Below, in pieces: positions 1-15,778 of a stretch of DNA of 32,000 nucleotides. Position 1 is the stretch's first letter, and each line of letters begins with the position of its first letter. Below the pieces are notes generated by a model. That model was not told where the DNA came from. It made no database searches and saw nothing but the letters and a program-made list of their open reading frames with translations. This stretch comes from Raphidiopsis brookii D9 (GTDB lineage Bacteria; Cyanobacteriota; Cyanobacteriia; Cyanobacteriales; Nostocaceae), in assembly GCA_000175855.1 (NCBI GenBank), contig ACYB01000010.1, positions 1-32,000 on the forward strand, in the 5' to 3' direction. The translations under genes and the position numbers were made by a program.

Positions 1-165
1 ATCCCATTTACGATTTTGCTCATCCCATTTATGAGCTTGCTCAGCTTGGAAAGCATCGAATTTACGATTTTGCTCATCCCATTTACGATTTTGCTCATTC
101 CACTTACGAGCTTGCTCAGCTTGGAAAGCATCGAATTTACGATTTTGCTCATCCCATTTGCGAGC
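1..165 (-). repeat. In-frame intragenic tandem repeats (21-nt and 54-nt sub-units forming a 75-nt unit) encoding EQxRKW / EQNRKFDAFQA
   Basis: Repeated strings ccatttacgattttgctcat and agcttgctcagcttggaaagcatcgaatttacg are visible directly. At least two full 75-nt units lie before the window edge. Confidence 0.85.
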
Positions 166-345
166 CTGCTCTTCCCTGTCTCGCTGTAACTCATTCAAAA
201 CTCGGTCAAATTTTTCGTCAAACTCAGTCCGGGGAGTGTAATATTCTGACACCGTCCGCAGGACAAAATCCCGCACACCTGGTTCCTCCGCGATCGCCCG
301 GGGCAATTCTTTTTGAATTAATGCCTTAATTTCAGCCTCTATCAT
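1..345 (-). CDS. N-terminal part of a third paralog of the tandem coiled-coil / PD-(D/E)XK-like gene family; continues past the left edge
   Basis: Reverse-strand ATG at 343-345 with 115 in-frame codons down to position 1. The first 64 aa are identical to the ORFs at 380-1051 and 1089-1835 (MIEAEIKALIQKELPRAIAEEPGVRDFVLRTVSEYYTPRTEFDEKFDRVLNELQRDREEQARKW). They are followed by DEQNRKFDAFQAEQARKW NEQNRKW DEQNRKFDAFQAEQAHKW DEQNRKW D... Confidence 0.8.
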   Translation of the reverse strand, partial: MIEAEIKALIQKELPRAIAEEPGVRDFVLRTVSEYYTPRTEFDEKFDRVLNELQRDREEQARKWDEQNRKFDAFQAEQARKWNEQNRKWDEQNRKFDAFQAEQAHKWDEQNRKWD

Positions 346-379
346 AGGTTTTTGGTATAGATGTTGAAATGCTTCCCTT

Positions 380-1051
380 TTATGGTACCACTACATCTGC
401 ATAACTATATATCTCAATGCCTAGGGATTTAGCTACCGGTACAGCTCGCTCATCCACCATGGGCGAAATCACAATTTTACGGTTAACCACTCTATTTTGA
501 TTTTTAGCGTAGAAGTCTGCCTTACGACCAAAGATGTACATACCAGCTTTGTCAATAGAAGACTTAAGTTCACAGACAATAGTTAGCCCATTTTTGATGA
601 TTATATCCAATTCCACCTGTTCTGGTCGACCAAATACTTCTCCCTCCTGGTCGTAAAGGGTGAGATTGAGCACCTCCACCCCAAAGGACTGGCCTAGAAT
701 GGCTTGGAGTCCATTACGGAAACTAGCTTCAGAATAGAGACCCCAGCGGGAACCAATAGCACCAATGGCACTTTCGTAACGACGGTTAGCTTTCTGGATT
801 TCCTCCAGGGTAGCACTGTTCTGGGCTTCGATTCTGTCCAGACGTTGATTATTTTCCTCCCATTTGCGAGCCTGCTCTTCCCTGTCTCGCTGTAACTCAT
901 TCAAAACTCGGTCAAATTTTTCATCAAACTCAGTCCGGGGAGTGTAATATTCTGACACCGTGCGCAGGACAAAATCCCGCACACCTGGTTCCTCCGCGAT
1001 CGCCCGGGGCAATTCTTTTTGAATTAATGCCTTAATTTCAGCCTCTATCAT
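380..1051 (-). CDS. Uncharacterised protein: conserved N-terminal region, short coiled coil and C-terminal PD-(D/E)XK nuclease-like domain. From memory it resembles the DUF3782-type cyanobacterial/archaeal family. This is the short form with no extra repeat unit.
   Basis: 223-aa ORF from the track. It has a heptad-rich segment (REEQARKWEENNQRLDRIEAQ) and the motif ELD(149)-x11-E(161)LK(163). It is near-identical to the neighbouring copy. Confidence 0.8.
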   Translation of the reverse strand: MIEAEIKALIQKELPRAIAEEPGVRDFVLRTVSEYYTPRTEFDEKFDRVLNELQRDREEQARKWEENNQRLDRIEAQNSATLEEIQKANRRYESAIGAIGSRWGLYSEASFRNGLQAILGQSFGVEVLNLTLYDQEGEVFGRPEQVELDIIIKNGLTIVCELKSSIDKAGMYIFGRKADFYAKNQNRVVNRKIVISPMVDERAVPVAKSLGIEIYSYADVVVP

Positions 1052-1088
1052 AGGTTTTTGGTTTTATAGGTGTTGAAATGCTTCCCTT

Positions 1089-1835
1089 TTATGGTACCAC
1101 TACATCTGCATAACTATATATCTCAATGCCTAGGGATTTAGCTACCGGTACAGCTCGCTCATCCACCATGGGCGAAATCACAATTTTACGGTTAACCACT
1201 CTATTTTGATTTTTAGCGTAGAAGTCTGCCTTACGACCAAAGATGTACATACCAGCTTTGTCAATAGAAGACTTAAGTTCACAGACAATAGTTAGCCCAT
1301 TTTTGATGATTATATCCAATTCCACCTGTTCTGGTCGACCAAATACTTCTCCCTCCTGGTCGTAAAGGGTAAGATTGAGCACCTCCACCCCAAAGGACTG
1401 GCCTAGAATGGCTTGGAGTCCATTACGGAAACTAGCTTCAGAATAGAGACCCCAGCGGGAACCAATAGCACCAATGGCACTTTCGTAACGACGGTTAGCT
1501 TTCTGGATTTCCTCCAGGGTAGCACTGTTCTGGGCTTCGATTCTGTCCAGACGTTGATTATTTTCCTCCCATTTGCGATTTTGCTCAGCTTGGAAAGCAT
1601 CGAATTTGCGATTTTGCTCATCCCACTTACGAGCTTGCTCATCCCATTTGCGAGCCTGCTCTTCCCTGTCTCGCTGTAACTCATTCAAAACTCGGTCAAA
1701 TTTTTCGTCAAACTCAGTCCGGGGAGTGTAATATTCTGACACCGTGCGCAGGACAAAATCCCGCACACCTGGTTCCTCCGCGATCGCCCGGGGCAATTCT
1801 TTTTGGATTAATGCTTTAATTTCAGCCTCTATCAT
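1089..1835 (-). CDS. Paralog of 380-1051 with one extra 25-aa coiled-coil unit (uncharacterised coiled-coil / PD-(D/E)XK-like protein)
   Basis: 248-aa ORF. It is identical in protein sequence to the 223-aa copy except for the insertion DEQARKWDEQNRKFDAFQAEQNRKW after REEQARKW. Only 4 nucleotide differences occur in the alignable 650 nt, all synonymous. Confidence 0.85.
   Translation of the reverse strand: MIEAEIKALIQKELPRAIAEEPGVRDFVLRTVSEYYTPRTEFDEKFDRVLNELQRDREEQARKWDEQARKWDEQNRKFDAFQAEQNRKWEENNQRLDRIEAQNSATLEEIQKANRRYESAIGAIGSRWGLYSEASFRNGLQAILGQSFGVEVLNLTLYDQEGEVFGRPEQVELDIIIKNGLTIVCELKSSIDKAGMYIFGRKADFYAKNQNRVVNRKIVISPMVDERAVPVAKSLGIEIYSYADVVVP
1569..1646 (-). repeat. Single 75-nt in-frame repeat unit, present in copy 1089-1835 and absent from copy 380-1051
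   Basis: The Trp codons (cca) at 1569-1571 and 1644-1646 are 75 nt apart. In the short copy the flanks are directly joined (tcctcccatttgcgagcctgctc, about 846-868). Confidence 0.85.
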
Positions 1836-2203
1836 AGGTTTTTGGTTTTATAGGTGTTGAAATGCTTCCCTTTTATGGTACCACTACATCTGCATAACTA
1901 TATATCTCAATTGAGGTGATGAGTATATTGGTAAAGCAGATAGTGATTAAATAAGGGGAGGGGAGTAGGAGAAATGAGAACCTCAACACAAAAAACTTCA
2001 CAAAAATTGATAAAGCGAAACAAAACTAAATCTAAAGAAATAATTAAGGAATTTTAGATCAGGAAAAAAATCGGGGAAAATAATTATTAATAATATGGAG
2101 CAAAAAAATAAAGCTCTAAATAATCATAAGTAAATATAAAACCGTGCAACGTCTGCCTTCACCATAGAGGGAAAGACGTTGTGCAACTTTTCAGTGATCA
2201 CAG

Positions 2204-3319: not shown

Positions 3320-4165
3320 TCACCTTGGTCGAATTAGGTGTGGTGCGGCAAATATGGAATAAGGAGTAAGTTGTATATTGAGGTTATATGCACCTGACCA
3401 CAATTTCACCAGGTTGTCTGTGAGTTCTTCTATTTGAGAAAGATTGCTTGTTTCCGGTTTTAGTGATAATAAAATTTTCCAGTTGAGTGGAATTCCGTGT
3501 ACGCTGTTATATGCTCCCGACATTACCCCTGTGAGCACACTACAATAGCAGTTGGAAATTTGAGCTTGTTTATTACTCCGCAAAAGGCTTAATTTAAAAT
3601 CTTCCACACTACTCAAAAAGCAATAAAGGGAAAGAGCCATATTATGGCTGATATTTTCCTGTAAATTGAACTCCGCGCCTATTCGTACCATTCCTGCTTG
3701 TCGCTTTAACAAGTTATTTAATTTTAACAAGCTTTCCGGAAGAGGGGAGGTTGTCTTTCCTAAAAAATCAATTGTTTCGGGAATCAGGGTCACAGTGTTT
3801 AATGTTTCTGTTAGACATTTAATTAGGACATATCCCCAAGCTAAAGCGTTATCTCTTTCTTCCGGGTCTGCATTGCCAAATTTGAGGAATTGCTGTAAAT
3901 TCTCTTTGAATCTGTCTAGATCTTCATGGTAAAAAATGGCTAGCGGTAGTGCAGCTATGACAATCATTACTGCTGTGCTTGTGAACCTGTTGTTTTGGTA
4001 GTTATTTGACCATTCCTCTACATCTAATCTACCCCGGTTAATCAAGCTCTGACTACTCATAATCCCTATTTCCCCCAAACCAACCGACTCCTGAGTAGTT
4101 AAAGTTTCACCTAGCAGCATCCCCAAAAAAATACCCCTAACTCGATCCCTTAGAGAATAACGCAT
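3320..4165 (-). CDS. ADP-ribosylglycohydrolase-like protein; divergent, with catalytic acidic motifs apparently degenerate
   Basis: 281-aa ORF. The N-terminal DRVRGIFLGMLLGETL resembles the ARH DRxxGxxxGxAxGDALG motif. The C-terminal TGVMSGAYNSVHGIPLNW resembles GxxxGAxxGxxxIPxxW. The expected D-x-D-T metal-ligand stretch reads ISNCYCS. Confidence 0.45.
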   Translation of the reverse strand: MRYSLRDRVRGIFLGMLLGETLTTQESVGLGEIGIMSSQSLINRGRLDVEEWSNNYQNNRFTSTAVMIVIAALPLAIFYHEDLDRFKENLQQFLKFGNADPEERDNALAWGYVLIKCLTETLNTVTLIPETIDFLGKTTSPLPESLLKLNNLLKRQAGMVRIGAEFNLQENISHNMALSLYCFLSSVEDFKLSLLRSNKQAQISNCYCSVLTGVMSGAYNSVHGIPLNWKILLSLKPETSNLSQIEELTDNLVKLWSGAYNLNIQLTPYSIFAAPHLIRPR

Positions 4166-13744: not shown

Positions 13745-14467
13745 ATGAGTGAAATTAGCATTATTTTAATAGAAGACCATGATTTAACTAGAATGGGTTT
13801 AAAGACCGTCATCCAGTCGCACCCAGGGTTGAAGGTAATCGGGGAAGCAGCAAATGCAACTCAAGGACTAAAACTTTTAGAAACTACTAAACCGGATGTG
13901 GCAGTTGTTGATATTGGGTTACCTGATATGGATGGTATAGAACTAACTCGTAGGTTTAAACGTCATCAGACTGAAAATGGACAGAACAATACCAAAATCC
14001 TGGTTTTAACCATGGATAGTACGGAAGAATCAGTTCTAGCTGCATTTGCAGCAGGAGCAGACTCCTATTACATGAAAGAGACCAGCATTAATAAATTAAC
14101 AGAAGCTATAAATGCTACTTATGCGGGAAATTCTTGGATAGATCCAGCGATCGCCAGTGTGGTTTTAAGGAGAATGCGTGTCCAAGCACCAGGGGAAGCA
14201 GGGAGTACTGATAGGCCAAAAATGGTAAAAATAGAGGGTTTAGCCATAGAGTACGAACAGGTGTTAGAAAGCTCTCCCCTGACCCAACGGGAGTTGGAAA
14301 TTTTGGAATTAATAGTGGATGGTTGTAGCAATGGACAAATAGCAGAAAAACTCTATATTACGGTGGGAACAGTAAAAACCCATGTTCGCAATATCTTGAA
14401 TAAGCTCTGTGCAGATGATAGAACCCAAGCTGCTGTGCGGGCTCTACGTTCGGGACTGGTTGGGTGA
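13745..14467 (+). CDS. NarL/LuxR-family response regulator (REC + long linker + LuxR-type HTH)
   Basis: 240-aa ORF with a receiver (IEDHDL, DVAVVDIGLPDMDG, VLTM) and a C-terminal LTQRELEILELIVDGCSNGQIAEKLYITVGTVKTHVRNILNKL. Confidence 0.85.
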   Translation: MSEISIILIEDHDLTRMGLKTVIQSHPGLKVIGEAANATQGLKLLETTKPDVAVVDIGLPDMDGIELTRRFKRHQTENGQNNTKILVLTMDSTEESVLAAFAAGADSYYMKETSINKLTEAINATYAGNSWIDPAIASVVLRRMRVQAPGEAGSTDRPKMVKIEGLAIEYEQVLESSPLTQRELEILELIVDGCSNGQIAEKLYITVGTVKTHVRNILNKLCADDRTQAAVRALRSGLVG

Positions 14468-15778
14468 TCCCAATCTCATTTTTAAACACTCGGCAATGCG
14501 TTTTGCTGCTCCTGGTTTCCCCATACGTTCCCATCCATTTGTGGCAATTTCTTGGAAAAAGTCGGGATTTTGTAATATATTTGCAACGGTTTCGGGAACT
14601 TGTCTGGGGTGATCTAATAATATTAAAGAAACTCCTAAAAGACGACTTTGAGCTTCAGCAAAATTGGGATTATATTGGGGACCTTTACCTGGAAAAGCAA
14701 TTACAGGTTTACCTAATCCTACAAATTGCTCTGTAGCGGTGCCCGCCATAGCAATAGCTAAGTGCGCCCAGTGTAAACATTCATTATAAGATGTTTGTGT
14801 TAATAGTAAGTAGGCATTTCTTTGTTTAAAAACTAAAAGCATGGGGATCCCTAATAACAATGGGGGGATGAGTGATGATTTTCCCAACCTTGATTTTTTA
14901 AAACTTTCAGATAAAATTGCCTGGTCTAAACCGGGTGCGATCGCACCGAGAAAAATAATTTTTCGCTGGGGCAAAATTTCCATTAAACCGGATATAGCGA
15001 CCATAATGATTTCCCAATTATTATATGCTTCACCAGTGCGGGAACCGGGGAGCAAAGTGATAATGAGGGGGTAATTGAGATTGGAATCTAGAAATTGGGG
15101 TGTATTAGAAGAAGGTTCCAAACCATCCATCATGGGATTTCCTGCATCAAAAGCTGGGATAGGCCACCTTCTTAAAATTTCAGTGGTTAGGGTATCTCGA
15201 GGAAATACTGCACGACAGCGACGACGACTCATCAACCATCTTTCCCAGGGGTGGTAAATGGAACCGGAGAAGTTTTCCCACCAAGATTTTTGGGAATTTC
15301 TCCTGAGTAAACCGGTTTTATCCCGCACATAATATTCTGATTTTGCAGTTCCCACAAAAGCATAATTAGGACCGCTGATGGCGGCAAATAGTAGAGGTAC
15401 GATATCACCCACCGCTAGGATACCTTGGTGATTGCCCAATTTTTTTTGACATTTTACCCAGGTACGAACTGCTCGAATTTGCTTGCATGTTAGTTGAATT
15501 AGACCACTTTGGATATCCTGCACCAGTTGACTTTTATCCATATAGATAAAACCACCTGAAGGCATGGTTTTTACATCACCAATACAGGGTATATTTAAAC
15601 TTTGATAGGTATGACCTTCTCCTACTATTGGTAAGGCAAAAATATCGGGAGCTGAGGGGAGCTTTCTTAGTTGCTCGATAATCCTTCCTGCAATTATATC
15701 TTCCCCGTGACCATTACTTAAAATAAGTAACTGCCAATGGGGGGTTTTTTCCAGCTTATGGTTTGAGGAATGTTTCAT
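14444..15778 (-). CDS. Lipid-A-disaccharide synthase (LpxB)-related glycosyltransferase-like protein (cyanobacterial family)
   Basis: 444-aa ORF. The N-terminal LLILSNGHGEDIIA and C-terminal MAGTATEQ..GLGKPVI recall the LpxB-related family. Assignment is from memory. Confidence 0.55.
   Translation of the reverse strand: MKHSSNHKLEKTPHWQLLILSNGHGEDIIAGRIIEQLRKLPSAPDIFALPIVGEGHTYQSLNIPCIGDVKTMPSGGFIYMDKSQLVQDIQSGLIQLTCKQIRAVRTWVKCQKKLGNHQGILAVGDIVPLLFAAISGPNYAFVGTAKSEYYVRDKTGLLRRNSQKSWWENFSGSIYHPWERWLMSRRRCRAVFPRDTLTTEILRRWPIPAFDAGNPMMDGLEPSSNTPQFLDSNLNYPLIITLLPGSRTGEAYNNWEIIMVAISGLMEILPQRKIIFLGAIAPGLDQAILSESFKKSRLGKSSLIPPLLLGIPMLLVFKQRNAYLLLTQTSYNECLHWAHLAIAMAGTATEQFVGLGKPVIAFPGKGPQYNPNFAEAQSRLLGVSLILLDHPRQVPETVANILQNPDFFQEIATNGWERMGKPGAAKRIAECLKMRLGSPNQSRT

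Follow-up and report, generated by a model that had tools for sequence, protein, structure and literature searches.

Shedu (SduA, DUF4263) is a single-gene anti-phage nuclease of the PD-(D/E)XK type, which has variable N-terminal regions, belongs to a NucS-like branch and lies in defence islands. In HsdS of Type I restriction systems, in-frame coiled-coil units known as TAEL repeats reset the spacing of the DNA half-sites, as in EcoR124I versus EcoR124/3. Both serve here as working comparisons for a tandem array of near-identical minus-strand genes that occupies the left end (positions 1-1911) of a 32,000-nucleotide (nt) stretch of the cyanobacterium Raphidiopsis brookii D9 (contig ACYB01000010.1, positions 1 to 32,000; hereafter the window, to which positions refer unless another locus is named). 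Each gene encodes a conserved helical head, a stalk made of short repeat units and a C-terminal nuclease domain, the whole belonging to the Pfam families DUF3782 and PDDEXK_10. We are highly confident of this structural and evolutionary description, namely that DUF3782 + PDDEXK_10 genes with head, variable stalk and nuclease domain have been tandemly amplified. The explanation taken as a whole, that a hypervariable array encodes a stalked endonuclease which stands alone and probably acts in genome conflict, is one that we favour with moderate confidence.

The family has been catalogued before, albeit without characterisation, and hence is not new. A profile analysis of 2007 predicted that PDDEXK_10 (formerly DUF1626/COG5493) is a domain of the restriction-endonuclease type, in most cases with a coiled coil ahead of it, and placed the nuclease domain nearest to DUF91, Hjc/Hje and restriction endonucleases of the Mrr type (PMC1913061). 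Other papers have noted multiple horizontal transfers (PMC3424549), reported archaeal DUF1626 genes together with HEPN-MNT modules (PMC3710099) and treated the coiled-coil stalk as that of 'a family of prokaryotic endonucleases' (Hartmann et al. 2016, PMC4786415); the expansion of the family in Cylindrospermopsis raciborskii was already visible in 2012. A preliminary description of the window, made from the letters alone, had considered the protein unassigned and a candidate for a new nuclease system, to be checked by profile and structure searches for a characterised family. The claim of novelty falls, given that the searches returned full matches to catalogued Pfam families; the claim of an unassigned function stands, as no tested role for the matched family was found in the literature searched.

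Family membership, fold and known nucleases

The two complete window proteins, of 223 and 248 amino acids (aa), match DUF3782 (PF12644) with 90.9 and 90.0 bits, respectively, against a gathering cut-off of 24.4 (expectation value, E, ~1e-25), and PDDEXK_10 (PF07788) with 71.8 and 71.4 bits against a cut-off of 21.2 (E ~5e-20), the latter profile being matched over its full length (positions 1-74 of 74). In the 223-aa protein, DUF3782 covers residues 65-143 and PDDEXK_10 residues 144-213. Close relatives carry the NCBI names 'PD-(D/E)XK nuclease family protein / DUF3782 domain-containing protein', and the NCBIfam profiles added only coiled-coil noise (MutS2, V-ATPase E). With an N-terminal coiled coil followed by a C-terminal restriction-endonuclease-like domain, the window genes are members of this family and do not differ from it at the protein level.

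An AlphaFold2 model of the 223-aa protein, built from 35 relatives, places helices at residues 108-123 and 168-184 and strands at residues 126-134, 144-153, 156-162 and 191-195, with a block-mean predicted local distance difference test score (pLDDT) of 72-96 across residues 131-220. When this model was compared with solved structures by Foldseek, the top matches were the nuclease domains of NucS/EndoMS (2vld, 5gkj), VC1899, Cdn1 and Can2 (Can2/Card1-type), at E values of ~1e-3 which are weak because the floppy full-length model served as query. The putative catalytic residues are well conserved: D149, E161 and K163 are invariant among 35 cyanobacterial relatives, E108 being kept in at least 90% of them, while 53 distant relatives, down to ~31% identity, all have E108 and E161, and at least 90% of them have D149 and K163. 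We are confident in predicting that the product has a PD-(D/E)XK nuclease fold in which the E...D...ExK signature is retained, in keeping with the coiled coil and nuclease-like part that the preliminary description had read from the tandem genes. The product would then be expected to work as a metal-dependent endonuclease, its catalytic domains joined by an oligomeric stalk.

The same evidence bears on a purely structural alternative, according to which the product is a coiled-coil or filament protein and its nuclease-like domain, having no catalytic activity, acts as a binding module only. Such a protein would suit the long helical stalk with its repeat units, the annotation of relatives as tropomyosin-like or coiled-coil proteins (PMC1913061) and the existence of stalk-only relatives in some bacteria (PMC4786415). 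Nevertheless, the complete or near-complete conservation of E, D and E-x-K in 53 distant relatives would be unexpected in a dead domain, and we consider this alternative very improbable.

Among characterised nucleases, NucS/EndoMS (DUF91) provides both the best solved-structure match of the window nuclease domain (2vld and 5gkj, as given above) and the closest link in the 2007 profiles. However, the DNA-binding beta-barrel that forms the N-terminal part of NucS is replaced here by the helical head and stalk, and the window protein has no DUF91 match in Pfam at E up to 1; the window genes are therefore not members of NucS/EndoMS. This relationship is what could recommend another reading, in which a housekeeping repair or recombination nuclease, similar to NucS/EndoMS or to the Hjc resolvase, has been amplified for dosage, with near-identical copies yielding more of the same head and tail and thus raising the protein level. 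The nearest fold and the nearest profiles (DUF91, Mrr-type, Hjc/Hje; PMC1913061) fit this reading, but several other features do not: the distribution is patchy, with presence and absence even within one genus at one site; multiple horizontal transfers have been noted (PMC3424549); the N-terminal DNA-binding domain of NucS is absent and the N-terminus is helical; the adjacent genes belong to restriction and to the Uma2 type, not to repair; and the products are unequal, as their stalks differ. On balance, dosage amplification appears improbable to us.

Shedu is a possible working analogue, in that it too is a stand-alone nuclease with a variable N-terminal part, which in the window protein consists of a repeat-built stalk. 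No match to DUF4263 or to the SduA models of PADLOC was found in the window protein at E up to 1, and consequently the window genes are not Shedu. With the predicted defence systems called CoCoNuTs the likeness is one of name and theme, coiled coils combined with nuclease domains; 'tandem' in their case describes the nuclease domains of McrC-like proteins, whose partners are McrB GTPases (PMC11090510). Neither McrB nor McrC domains or genes were found in the protein, in the visible right-hand flank of the window array or in the flanks of the five related arrays described below (loci L001-L004 and L086), so the window genes do not belong to McrBC or CoCoNuT systems.

Head, stalk and layout of the array

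The three consecutive minus-strand genes seen in the preliminary description are confirmed by the open reading frame (ORF) list, by alignment and by a repeat finder, which returned direct repeats of 273-300 nt at 99-100% identity (families D1 and D2), far above chance. Between copies 2 and 3, the 474-nt tails differ at a single base (662 versus 1371), just as had been noted for the C-terminal halves, and the first 64 and the last 157 residues form the same protein in both copies; hence all the point differences in heads and tails are synonymous, again as first described. What changes from copy to copy is length, and length varies only through the count of internal units of 21 nt, encoding RKWDEQN, and of 33 nt, encoding RKFDAFQAEQ[A/N].

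All elements of the array lie on the minus strand and, from left to right, are arranged as follows. Copy 1 (<1-345; 115 codons) is represented by its 5' part only, which runs off the left edge of the window; it comprises a head of 57 residues followed by at least 58 residues of stalk, with four heptad-type and two hendecad-type units visible (1-345), the 21/33-nt repeat tract that codes for the stalk lying at 1-171 (repeat families D3 and D4). A spacer of 34 nt (346-379) separates it from copy 2 (380-1051), which is complete, encodes 223 aa and has the shortest stalk, with one RKWE unit; its sole 21-nt stalk unit lies at 857-877 (family D4). The nuclease domain of copy 2, residues 105-218, is encoded at 398-739 and is adjoined by a conserved GxRWG motif (740-754), with the codons of the conserved residues at 728-730 (E108), 605-607 (D149), 569-571 (E161) and 563-565 (K163). 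After a 37-nt spacer (1052-1088) comes copy 3 (1089-1835), also complete, whose 248 aa reflect a stalk that is 25 residues (7+7+11) longer than that of copy 2, its 21/33-nt repeat tract being located at 1566-1661 (family D4). Its nuclease domain, residues 130-243, is encoded at 1107-1448, with the equivalent conserved codons at 1437-1439 (E133), 1314-1316 (D174), 1278-1280 (E186) and 1272-1274 (K188). Upstream of copy 3 there is an additional 37-nt spacer (1836-1872; family D1), and beyond it the 3'-end remnant of a fourth element, its last 12 codons (IEIYSYADVVVP) plus the stop codon (1873-1911), marks the right boundary of the array. The segment 1639-1911 as a whole is 99% identical to 855-1127 (family D1). 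Unique junction sequence then follows, at 1912-1980, between the array and the proB side, and no other copies were found elsewhere in the 32-kb window.

The head is a conserved helical segment of ~57 residues, and the N-terminal 100 residues are predicted by AlphaFold2 to be helical. It contains the sequence YYTPRTE at residues 35-41, for which the family consensus is YYxPKxE, and the model breaks its helix at residues 37-38. The stalk that follows combines a variable number of the 7-residue RKWDEQN and 11-residue RKFDAFQAEQ[A/N] units; the aromatic residues (Trp, Phe) of this repeat tract are spaced 7-3-8, which gives an 18-residue, five-turn seam. The RKWDEQN heptad has been kept from cyanobacteria to Gammaproteobacteria, and the sequence of the stalk must therefore be constrained, being more than helical filler. 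As in HsdS and its TAEL repeats, in-frame tandem units alter the length of a coiled coil; whereas repeat number is tied to half-site spacing in HsdS, the likeness here is a working analogy drawn from the genes. The stalks of trimeric autotransporter adhesins, discussed by Hartmann et al. (PMC4786415), offer a similar parallel.

How such chains would assemble can be approached by analogy. By likeness to archaeal relatives, a parallel trimer is possible. In the trimeric alpha/beta stalks described by Hartmann et al. (2016, PMC4786415), a beta-layer motif, [aliphatic]-A-T-K-[polar]-[D/E], breaks the coiled coil, and the bacterial members of the family were stated to be without nonads (PMC4786415). 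A profile search of the PDB with the head and first stalk segment gave a weak match to 6h9l (E 0.011), which has three chains and ATKEDIE repeats, and apart from this match the sequence and profile searches of the PDB returned only coiled-coil noise; a literature search found no paper naming 6H9L. The preliminary description had suggested that co-expressed copies with the same head and tail could form mixed oligomers. It seems to us that chains of unequal length in a parallel, in-register bundle could not align both their heads and their tails, and for this reason length-matched homomers or staggered assemblies seem likelier; in-register mixed oligomers are thus less obvious than proposed.

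Several features of the array DNA may be reported alongside. A scan for RNA families (Rfam) of the window array, and of the long spacers of the other array type introduced below, found none. Promoter-like sites numbered four versus 4.4 expected and terminator-like sites five versus 2.1 ± 1.4 expected, neither being clearly above chance, and the promoter-like sites in the spacers overlap the start codon. The guanine plus cytosine content of the array is 44.5% versus 40.6 ± 2.0% in the rest of the window, an offset that is too mild as an argument for foreign origin. The HIP1 octamer (GCGATCGC) occurs once in the head of each copy, at 290, 996 and 1780, and at 21 sites in the 32-kb window. An exact-sequence look-up retrieved no record for the two complete window copies or for proB, and found a record for aroQ.

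Arrays in related genomes and their probable homogenisation

The comparison of copy number across related genomes, which had been suggested as a check, has revealed 4 to 12 copies in related complete genomes of Cylindrospermopsis. The complete genomes of C. raciborskii (CP195152, CP073250, JBPFSD01) contain 11-12 tandem copies of 230-302 aa with spacers of ~264 nt, and in two genomes all 12 copies are intact. In one of these arrays (L002) the products measure, in order, 284, 262, 302, 248, 269, 248, 266, 280, 255, 244, 273 and 230 aa, that is, 11 distinct lengths for 12 copies; the length differences in the arrays are combinations of 7-residue and 18-residue (11+7) units only. C. curvispora (CP060822, L086) has four copies plus a remnant at the locus of the C. 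raciborskii array, while the assembly GCA_002321935 (L001) has ~9 copies with spacers of 34-37 nt as in the window. Three strains that share 99.92-99.97% identity over the 7.3-kb upstream flank have 12, 12 and 11 copies, and stalk length differs in one to three of them; since strains that are nearly clonal differ in both respects, copy number and stalk length must change much faster than point substitutions accumulate.

Two types of array can be distinguished by their spacers, the type of the window and L001, with 35-nt spacers, and that of L002, L004 and L086, with 264-nt spacers. The spacer at 8682-8946 of L002 and all other spacers of L002-L004 and L086 measure 263-270 nt, and their last ~35 nt before the start codon resemble the window spacer. 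The ~230 extra nt follow the stop codon and hold a GGTTGGGTT...AACCCAAC hairpin; the 265-nt spacer folds no better than its shuffled versions (z -1.35). At 4921-12991 of L001 there are a fused ORF of 652 aa and several short fragments, with 95-98% nucleotide identity to the window copies, which suggest frameshift errors in a noisy assembly of long reads rather than true pseudogenes.

Tandem repeats of this sort raise the question of whether the array is genuine, or whether one gene, or fewer genes than appear, have been mis-assembled into a false tandem array. Short-read assemblies do break at this place: in GCA_002114155.1 (L082), the sequence matches window positions 5000-1448 at 99.3% through proB and the junction into the first copy, where the contig breaks off, as an unresolved repeat would lead one to expect. 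Contig ends are also where many relatives are found, and the long-read assembly L001 shows frameshifted copies. Against an artefact of this sort, four complete or near-complete related genomes consistently resolve 4-12 copies, the window copies carry substitutions of their own and distinct repeat tracts, and the junction with the first copy is reproduced in the independent assembly just mentioned, which makes this possibility extremely improbable.

The divergence of the two array types provides a measure of selection. Tails differ at ~5 of 474 nt within an array (~1%) and at ~45 of 474 nt between array types (~9.5%). For the head, comparison between types gives a synonymous rate (dS) of 0.53-0.59 and a nonsynonymous rate (dN) of 0, and for the tail a dS of 0.41-0.42 and a dN of 0.025-0.029, the ratio being ~0.06; of the 22 codons that are polymorphic within L002, 17 vary synonymously. 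A tail dN/dS of ~0.06 together with a head dN of zero indicates strong purifying selection. The helicase gene that lies downstream of the arrays is common to both types, at 92% identity, and the arrays are consequently in orthologous positions on that side. Given that the arrays have diverged about as much as this neighbour, while the copies within an array are ~99% alike, they bear the signature of concerted evolution under purifying selection, one that independent recent amplification in each lineage would leave as well, in agreement with the earlier suggestion that the copies are kept alike while selection acts on the protein.

In mechanistic terms, unequal homologous exchange between copies would change their number, and exchange or slippage among the in-frame units of 21, 33 or 54 nt would change the length of the stalk. 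Gene conversion or recent amplification would keep heads and tails ~99% alike, and purifying selection would remove amino-acid changes. Could these processes alone account for the array? In the neutral or selfish interpretation, the gene is simply prone to recombination, its copies multiply by unequal crossing-over, the host gains nothing from them and the various stalk lengths are a by-product of mutation; the encoded nuclease may itself be selfish or toxin-like, in the manner of the many dispersed Uma2 genes that stand beside relatives. Such an interpretation agrees with a copy number that is anywhere from 1 to 12 in close relatives and shifts between near-clonal strains, with truncated remnants at array edges, with an upstream flank that varies among strains and with the presence of other high-copy nuclease genes, Uma2 and DUF29, next to relatives. 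All the length changes are, moreover, multiples of 21, 33 or 54 nt, so that the reading frame would be kept without any selection. It is at odds with the strong purifying selection on head and nuclease domain (dN/dS ~0.06 or less), with 12 out of 12 copies being intact in two genomes, with the constraint on the stalk that follows from the conserved RKWDEQN, and with the absence of relatives from phage, plasmid and viral-contig collections and of any general link to introns, inteins or transposases. We regard the neutral or selfish interpretation as unlikely, though less so than dosage amplification.

The recombining array of stalked nucleases that we favour instead has counterparts in distant lineages. 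The proteins closest to those of the window are all from C. raciborskii, followed by those of Synechocystis, Snowella, Geminocystis, Pseudanabaena and other cyanobacteria. The family counts 2727 matches in a protein collection clustered at 90% and 907 clusters at 50% identity (E <=1e-3), and 479 matches among 185,579 species-representative genomes; these matches include Chloroflexota, Desulfobacterota and Gammaproteobacteria, and the family is concentrated in cyanobacteria. Loci in other species mostly contain one copy of the gene. Prochloron, nevertheless, has tandem copies of 242 and 299 aa with heads identical at 45 of 45 and tails at 126 of 130 positions, Chromatiaceae have tandem copies of 219, 262 and 259 aa with tails identical at 129-130 of 130 positions, and Symploca has a tandem pair. 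A literature search found no description of this hypervariable tandem arrangement, in which copies differ almost only in stalk length, nor of its recurrence in three lineages.

Searches by tblastn of phage and plasmid collections and of 2.9 million viral contigs found no relatives, and a PHROG search gave one marginal match only; on these grounds an origin from phage or plasmid was rejected.

Neighbourhood of the arrays and possible function

In the complete genomes, the arrays are always followed downstream by a 1419-aa SNF2 helicase with a PbeA-like N-terminal region and by a 1076-aa Type IIG restriction endonuclease-methyltransferase, the latter matching its PADLOC model at E 1e-213; these genes are located at 11481-19060 of L086, 19400-20909 of L004 and 13022-20534 of L001. 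An AAA_15 ATPase fragment additionally lies downstream of the array in C. curvispora. The helicases of C. curvispora and C. raciborskii share 99.8% identity, as against 87-96% for the upstream flanks, and some array copies are identical too. It follows that the array and the restriction/helicase genes seem to travel as one island, and the sequences suggest a recent exchange of this helicase/restriction island between the two species. Upstream of the C. curvispora array there is also an IS605 OrfB/TnpB (Cas12f-like) gene (L086, 3788-5074), absent from the C. raciborskii loci.

On the other side of the array, the neighbour differs in three groups of strains, being proB in the window, DUF2555 in L001 and Methyltransf_11 in L002-L004 and L086. 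In C. curvispora CP060822 and in a Logan assembly (L084, L085) nothing occupies the site upstream of proB; a PGP-phosphatase gene there runs straight into proB, and the similarity of these strains to the window resumes at ~1980, inside the 3' end of the PGP-phosphatase gene. The locus is thus accessory, as the preliminary description had supposed; the proB site either received the array (or a larger island) by insertion or is the breakpoint of a rearrangement. Two other minus-strand genes of the window, at 3320-4165 (281 aa) and 14444-15778 (444 aa), have no Pfam match at E <=1e-5, the orthologues of the former being annotated with a weak ADP-ribosylglycohydrolase match.

The neighbours of relatives in other species were surveyed at 80 loci, retained from a search with a cyanobacterial alignment as query, and the Cylindrospermopsis genomes were not among these. 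The commonest immediate neighbours (n = 147) are Uma2 putative endonucleases (14), sugar epimerases/dehydratases (7) and DUF29 (4). Uma2/DUF820 (PF05685) resembles the array genes in being also of the PD-(D/E)XK type, in having no known function, in its multi-copy presence in cyanobacteria and in being their frequent immediate neighbour on the same strand; it differs in forming a separate family without sequence match, and in being dispersed rather than organised in homogenised tandem arrays. In other cyanobacteria, Uma2 genes often stand, by raw count, on the same strand directly beside the gene. One Uma2 subgroup has a C-terminal coiled-coil extension, and DUF4351 is also found among the neighbours.

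The sole strong PADLOC match of the array protein is to a full-length homologous model, PDLC01085 'C3a181' (E 2e-17). Another PADLOC model of the 'C3a' series, PDLC01075 'C3a139', was also encountered. A literature search on these 'C3a' names retrieved papers on padlock probes only.

From the company of restriction and helicase genes, the Uma2 neighbours, the homologous PADLOC model, the HEPN-MNT modules reported with archaeal DUF1626 genes and the presence or absence of the locus among strains, we tentatively assign the arrays a role in genome conflict, be it defensive or toxin-like, rather than in housekeeping, although we would put this somewhat below an even chance. A number of observations weigh against the explanation in which that role is embedded. 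The PDLC01085 label, 'Diadenylate cyclase', does not fit the protein, and the match to this model consequently says little. The array and the restriction genes are convergent and hence do not form one operon, and in the window the visible flank on the 5' side of the array is of housekeeping type, with proB, the 281-aa protein, aroQ, topA and ndhB. Elsewhere, the 147 immediate neighbours spread over 143 Pfam families, without a conserved partner gene, and many cyanobacterial loci lie within sugar or polysaccharide genes. With regard to the protein, pLDDT falls below 50 at residues 36-43 and 70-105, leaving the stalk and the head junction poorly modelled, and no family member with an assayed activity or phenotype was found in the literature searched. 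The low divergence within arrays, finally, could reflect an independent recent amplification in each lineage instead of concerted evolution.

Granting a stalked endonuclease, what might so many lengths be good for? One conceivable answer is that the array represents a 'length ladder', in which one nuclease is presented on many stalks and stalk length is the functional variable. The ladder would extend from 223 to 302 aa in steps of 7 and 11 residues, corresponding to ~1.0 and 1.6 nm if helical, and would be remade continually by recombination among the in-frame repeat units. Stalk length would then fix the reach or spacing of the catalytic domains from a target bound by the head, and the isoforms would span different targets or geometries. 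The recurrence of arrays in Cylindrospermopsis, Prochloron and Chromatiaceae, as well as the presence of 11 lengths in 12 copies, is compatible with such a ladder and is equally expected from neutral slippage; we hold the ladder to be a rather improbable extension of the stalked-endonuclease explanation. If true, it would constitute a form of diversification akin in spirit to the switching of repeat number in HsdS, but one that is realised as a multi-gene array.

For the biology of these bloom-forming cyanobacteria, the arrays matter in more than one way. They break short-read assemblies, and they may be recombination breakpoints, given that their upstream flank differs among strains. They also belong to a large family with intact catalytic residues and no known function, for which they offer a natural experiment: near-identical genes that differ in stalk length only, placed beside a restriction/helicase island and variable among near-clonal strains. 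Should the nuclease turn out to be an effector, defensive or toxic, a new means of varying an immune protein would have come to light; otherwise the arrays remain a clean case of concerted evolution combined with repeat-driven hypervariability in length.

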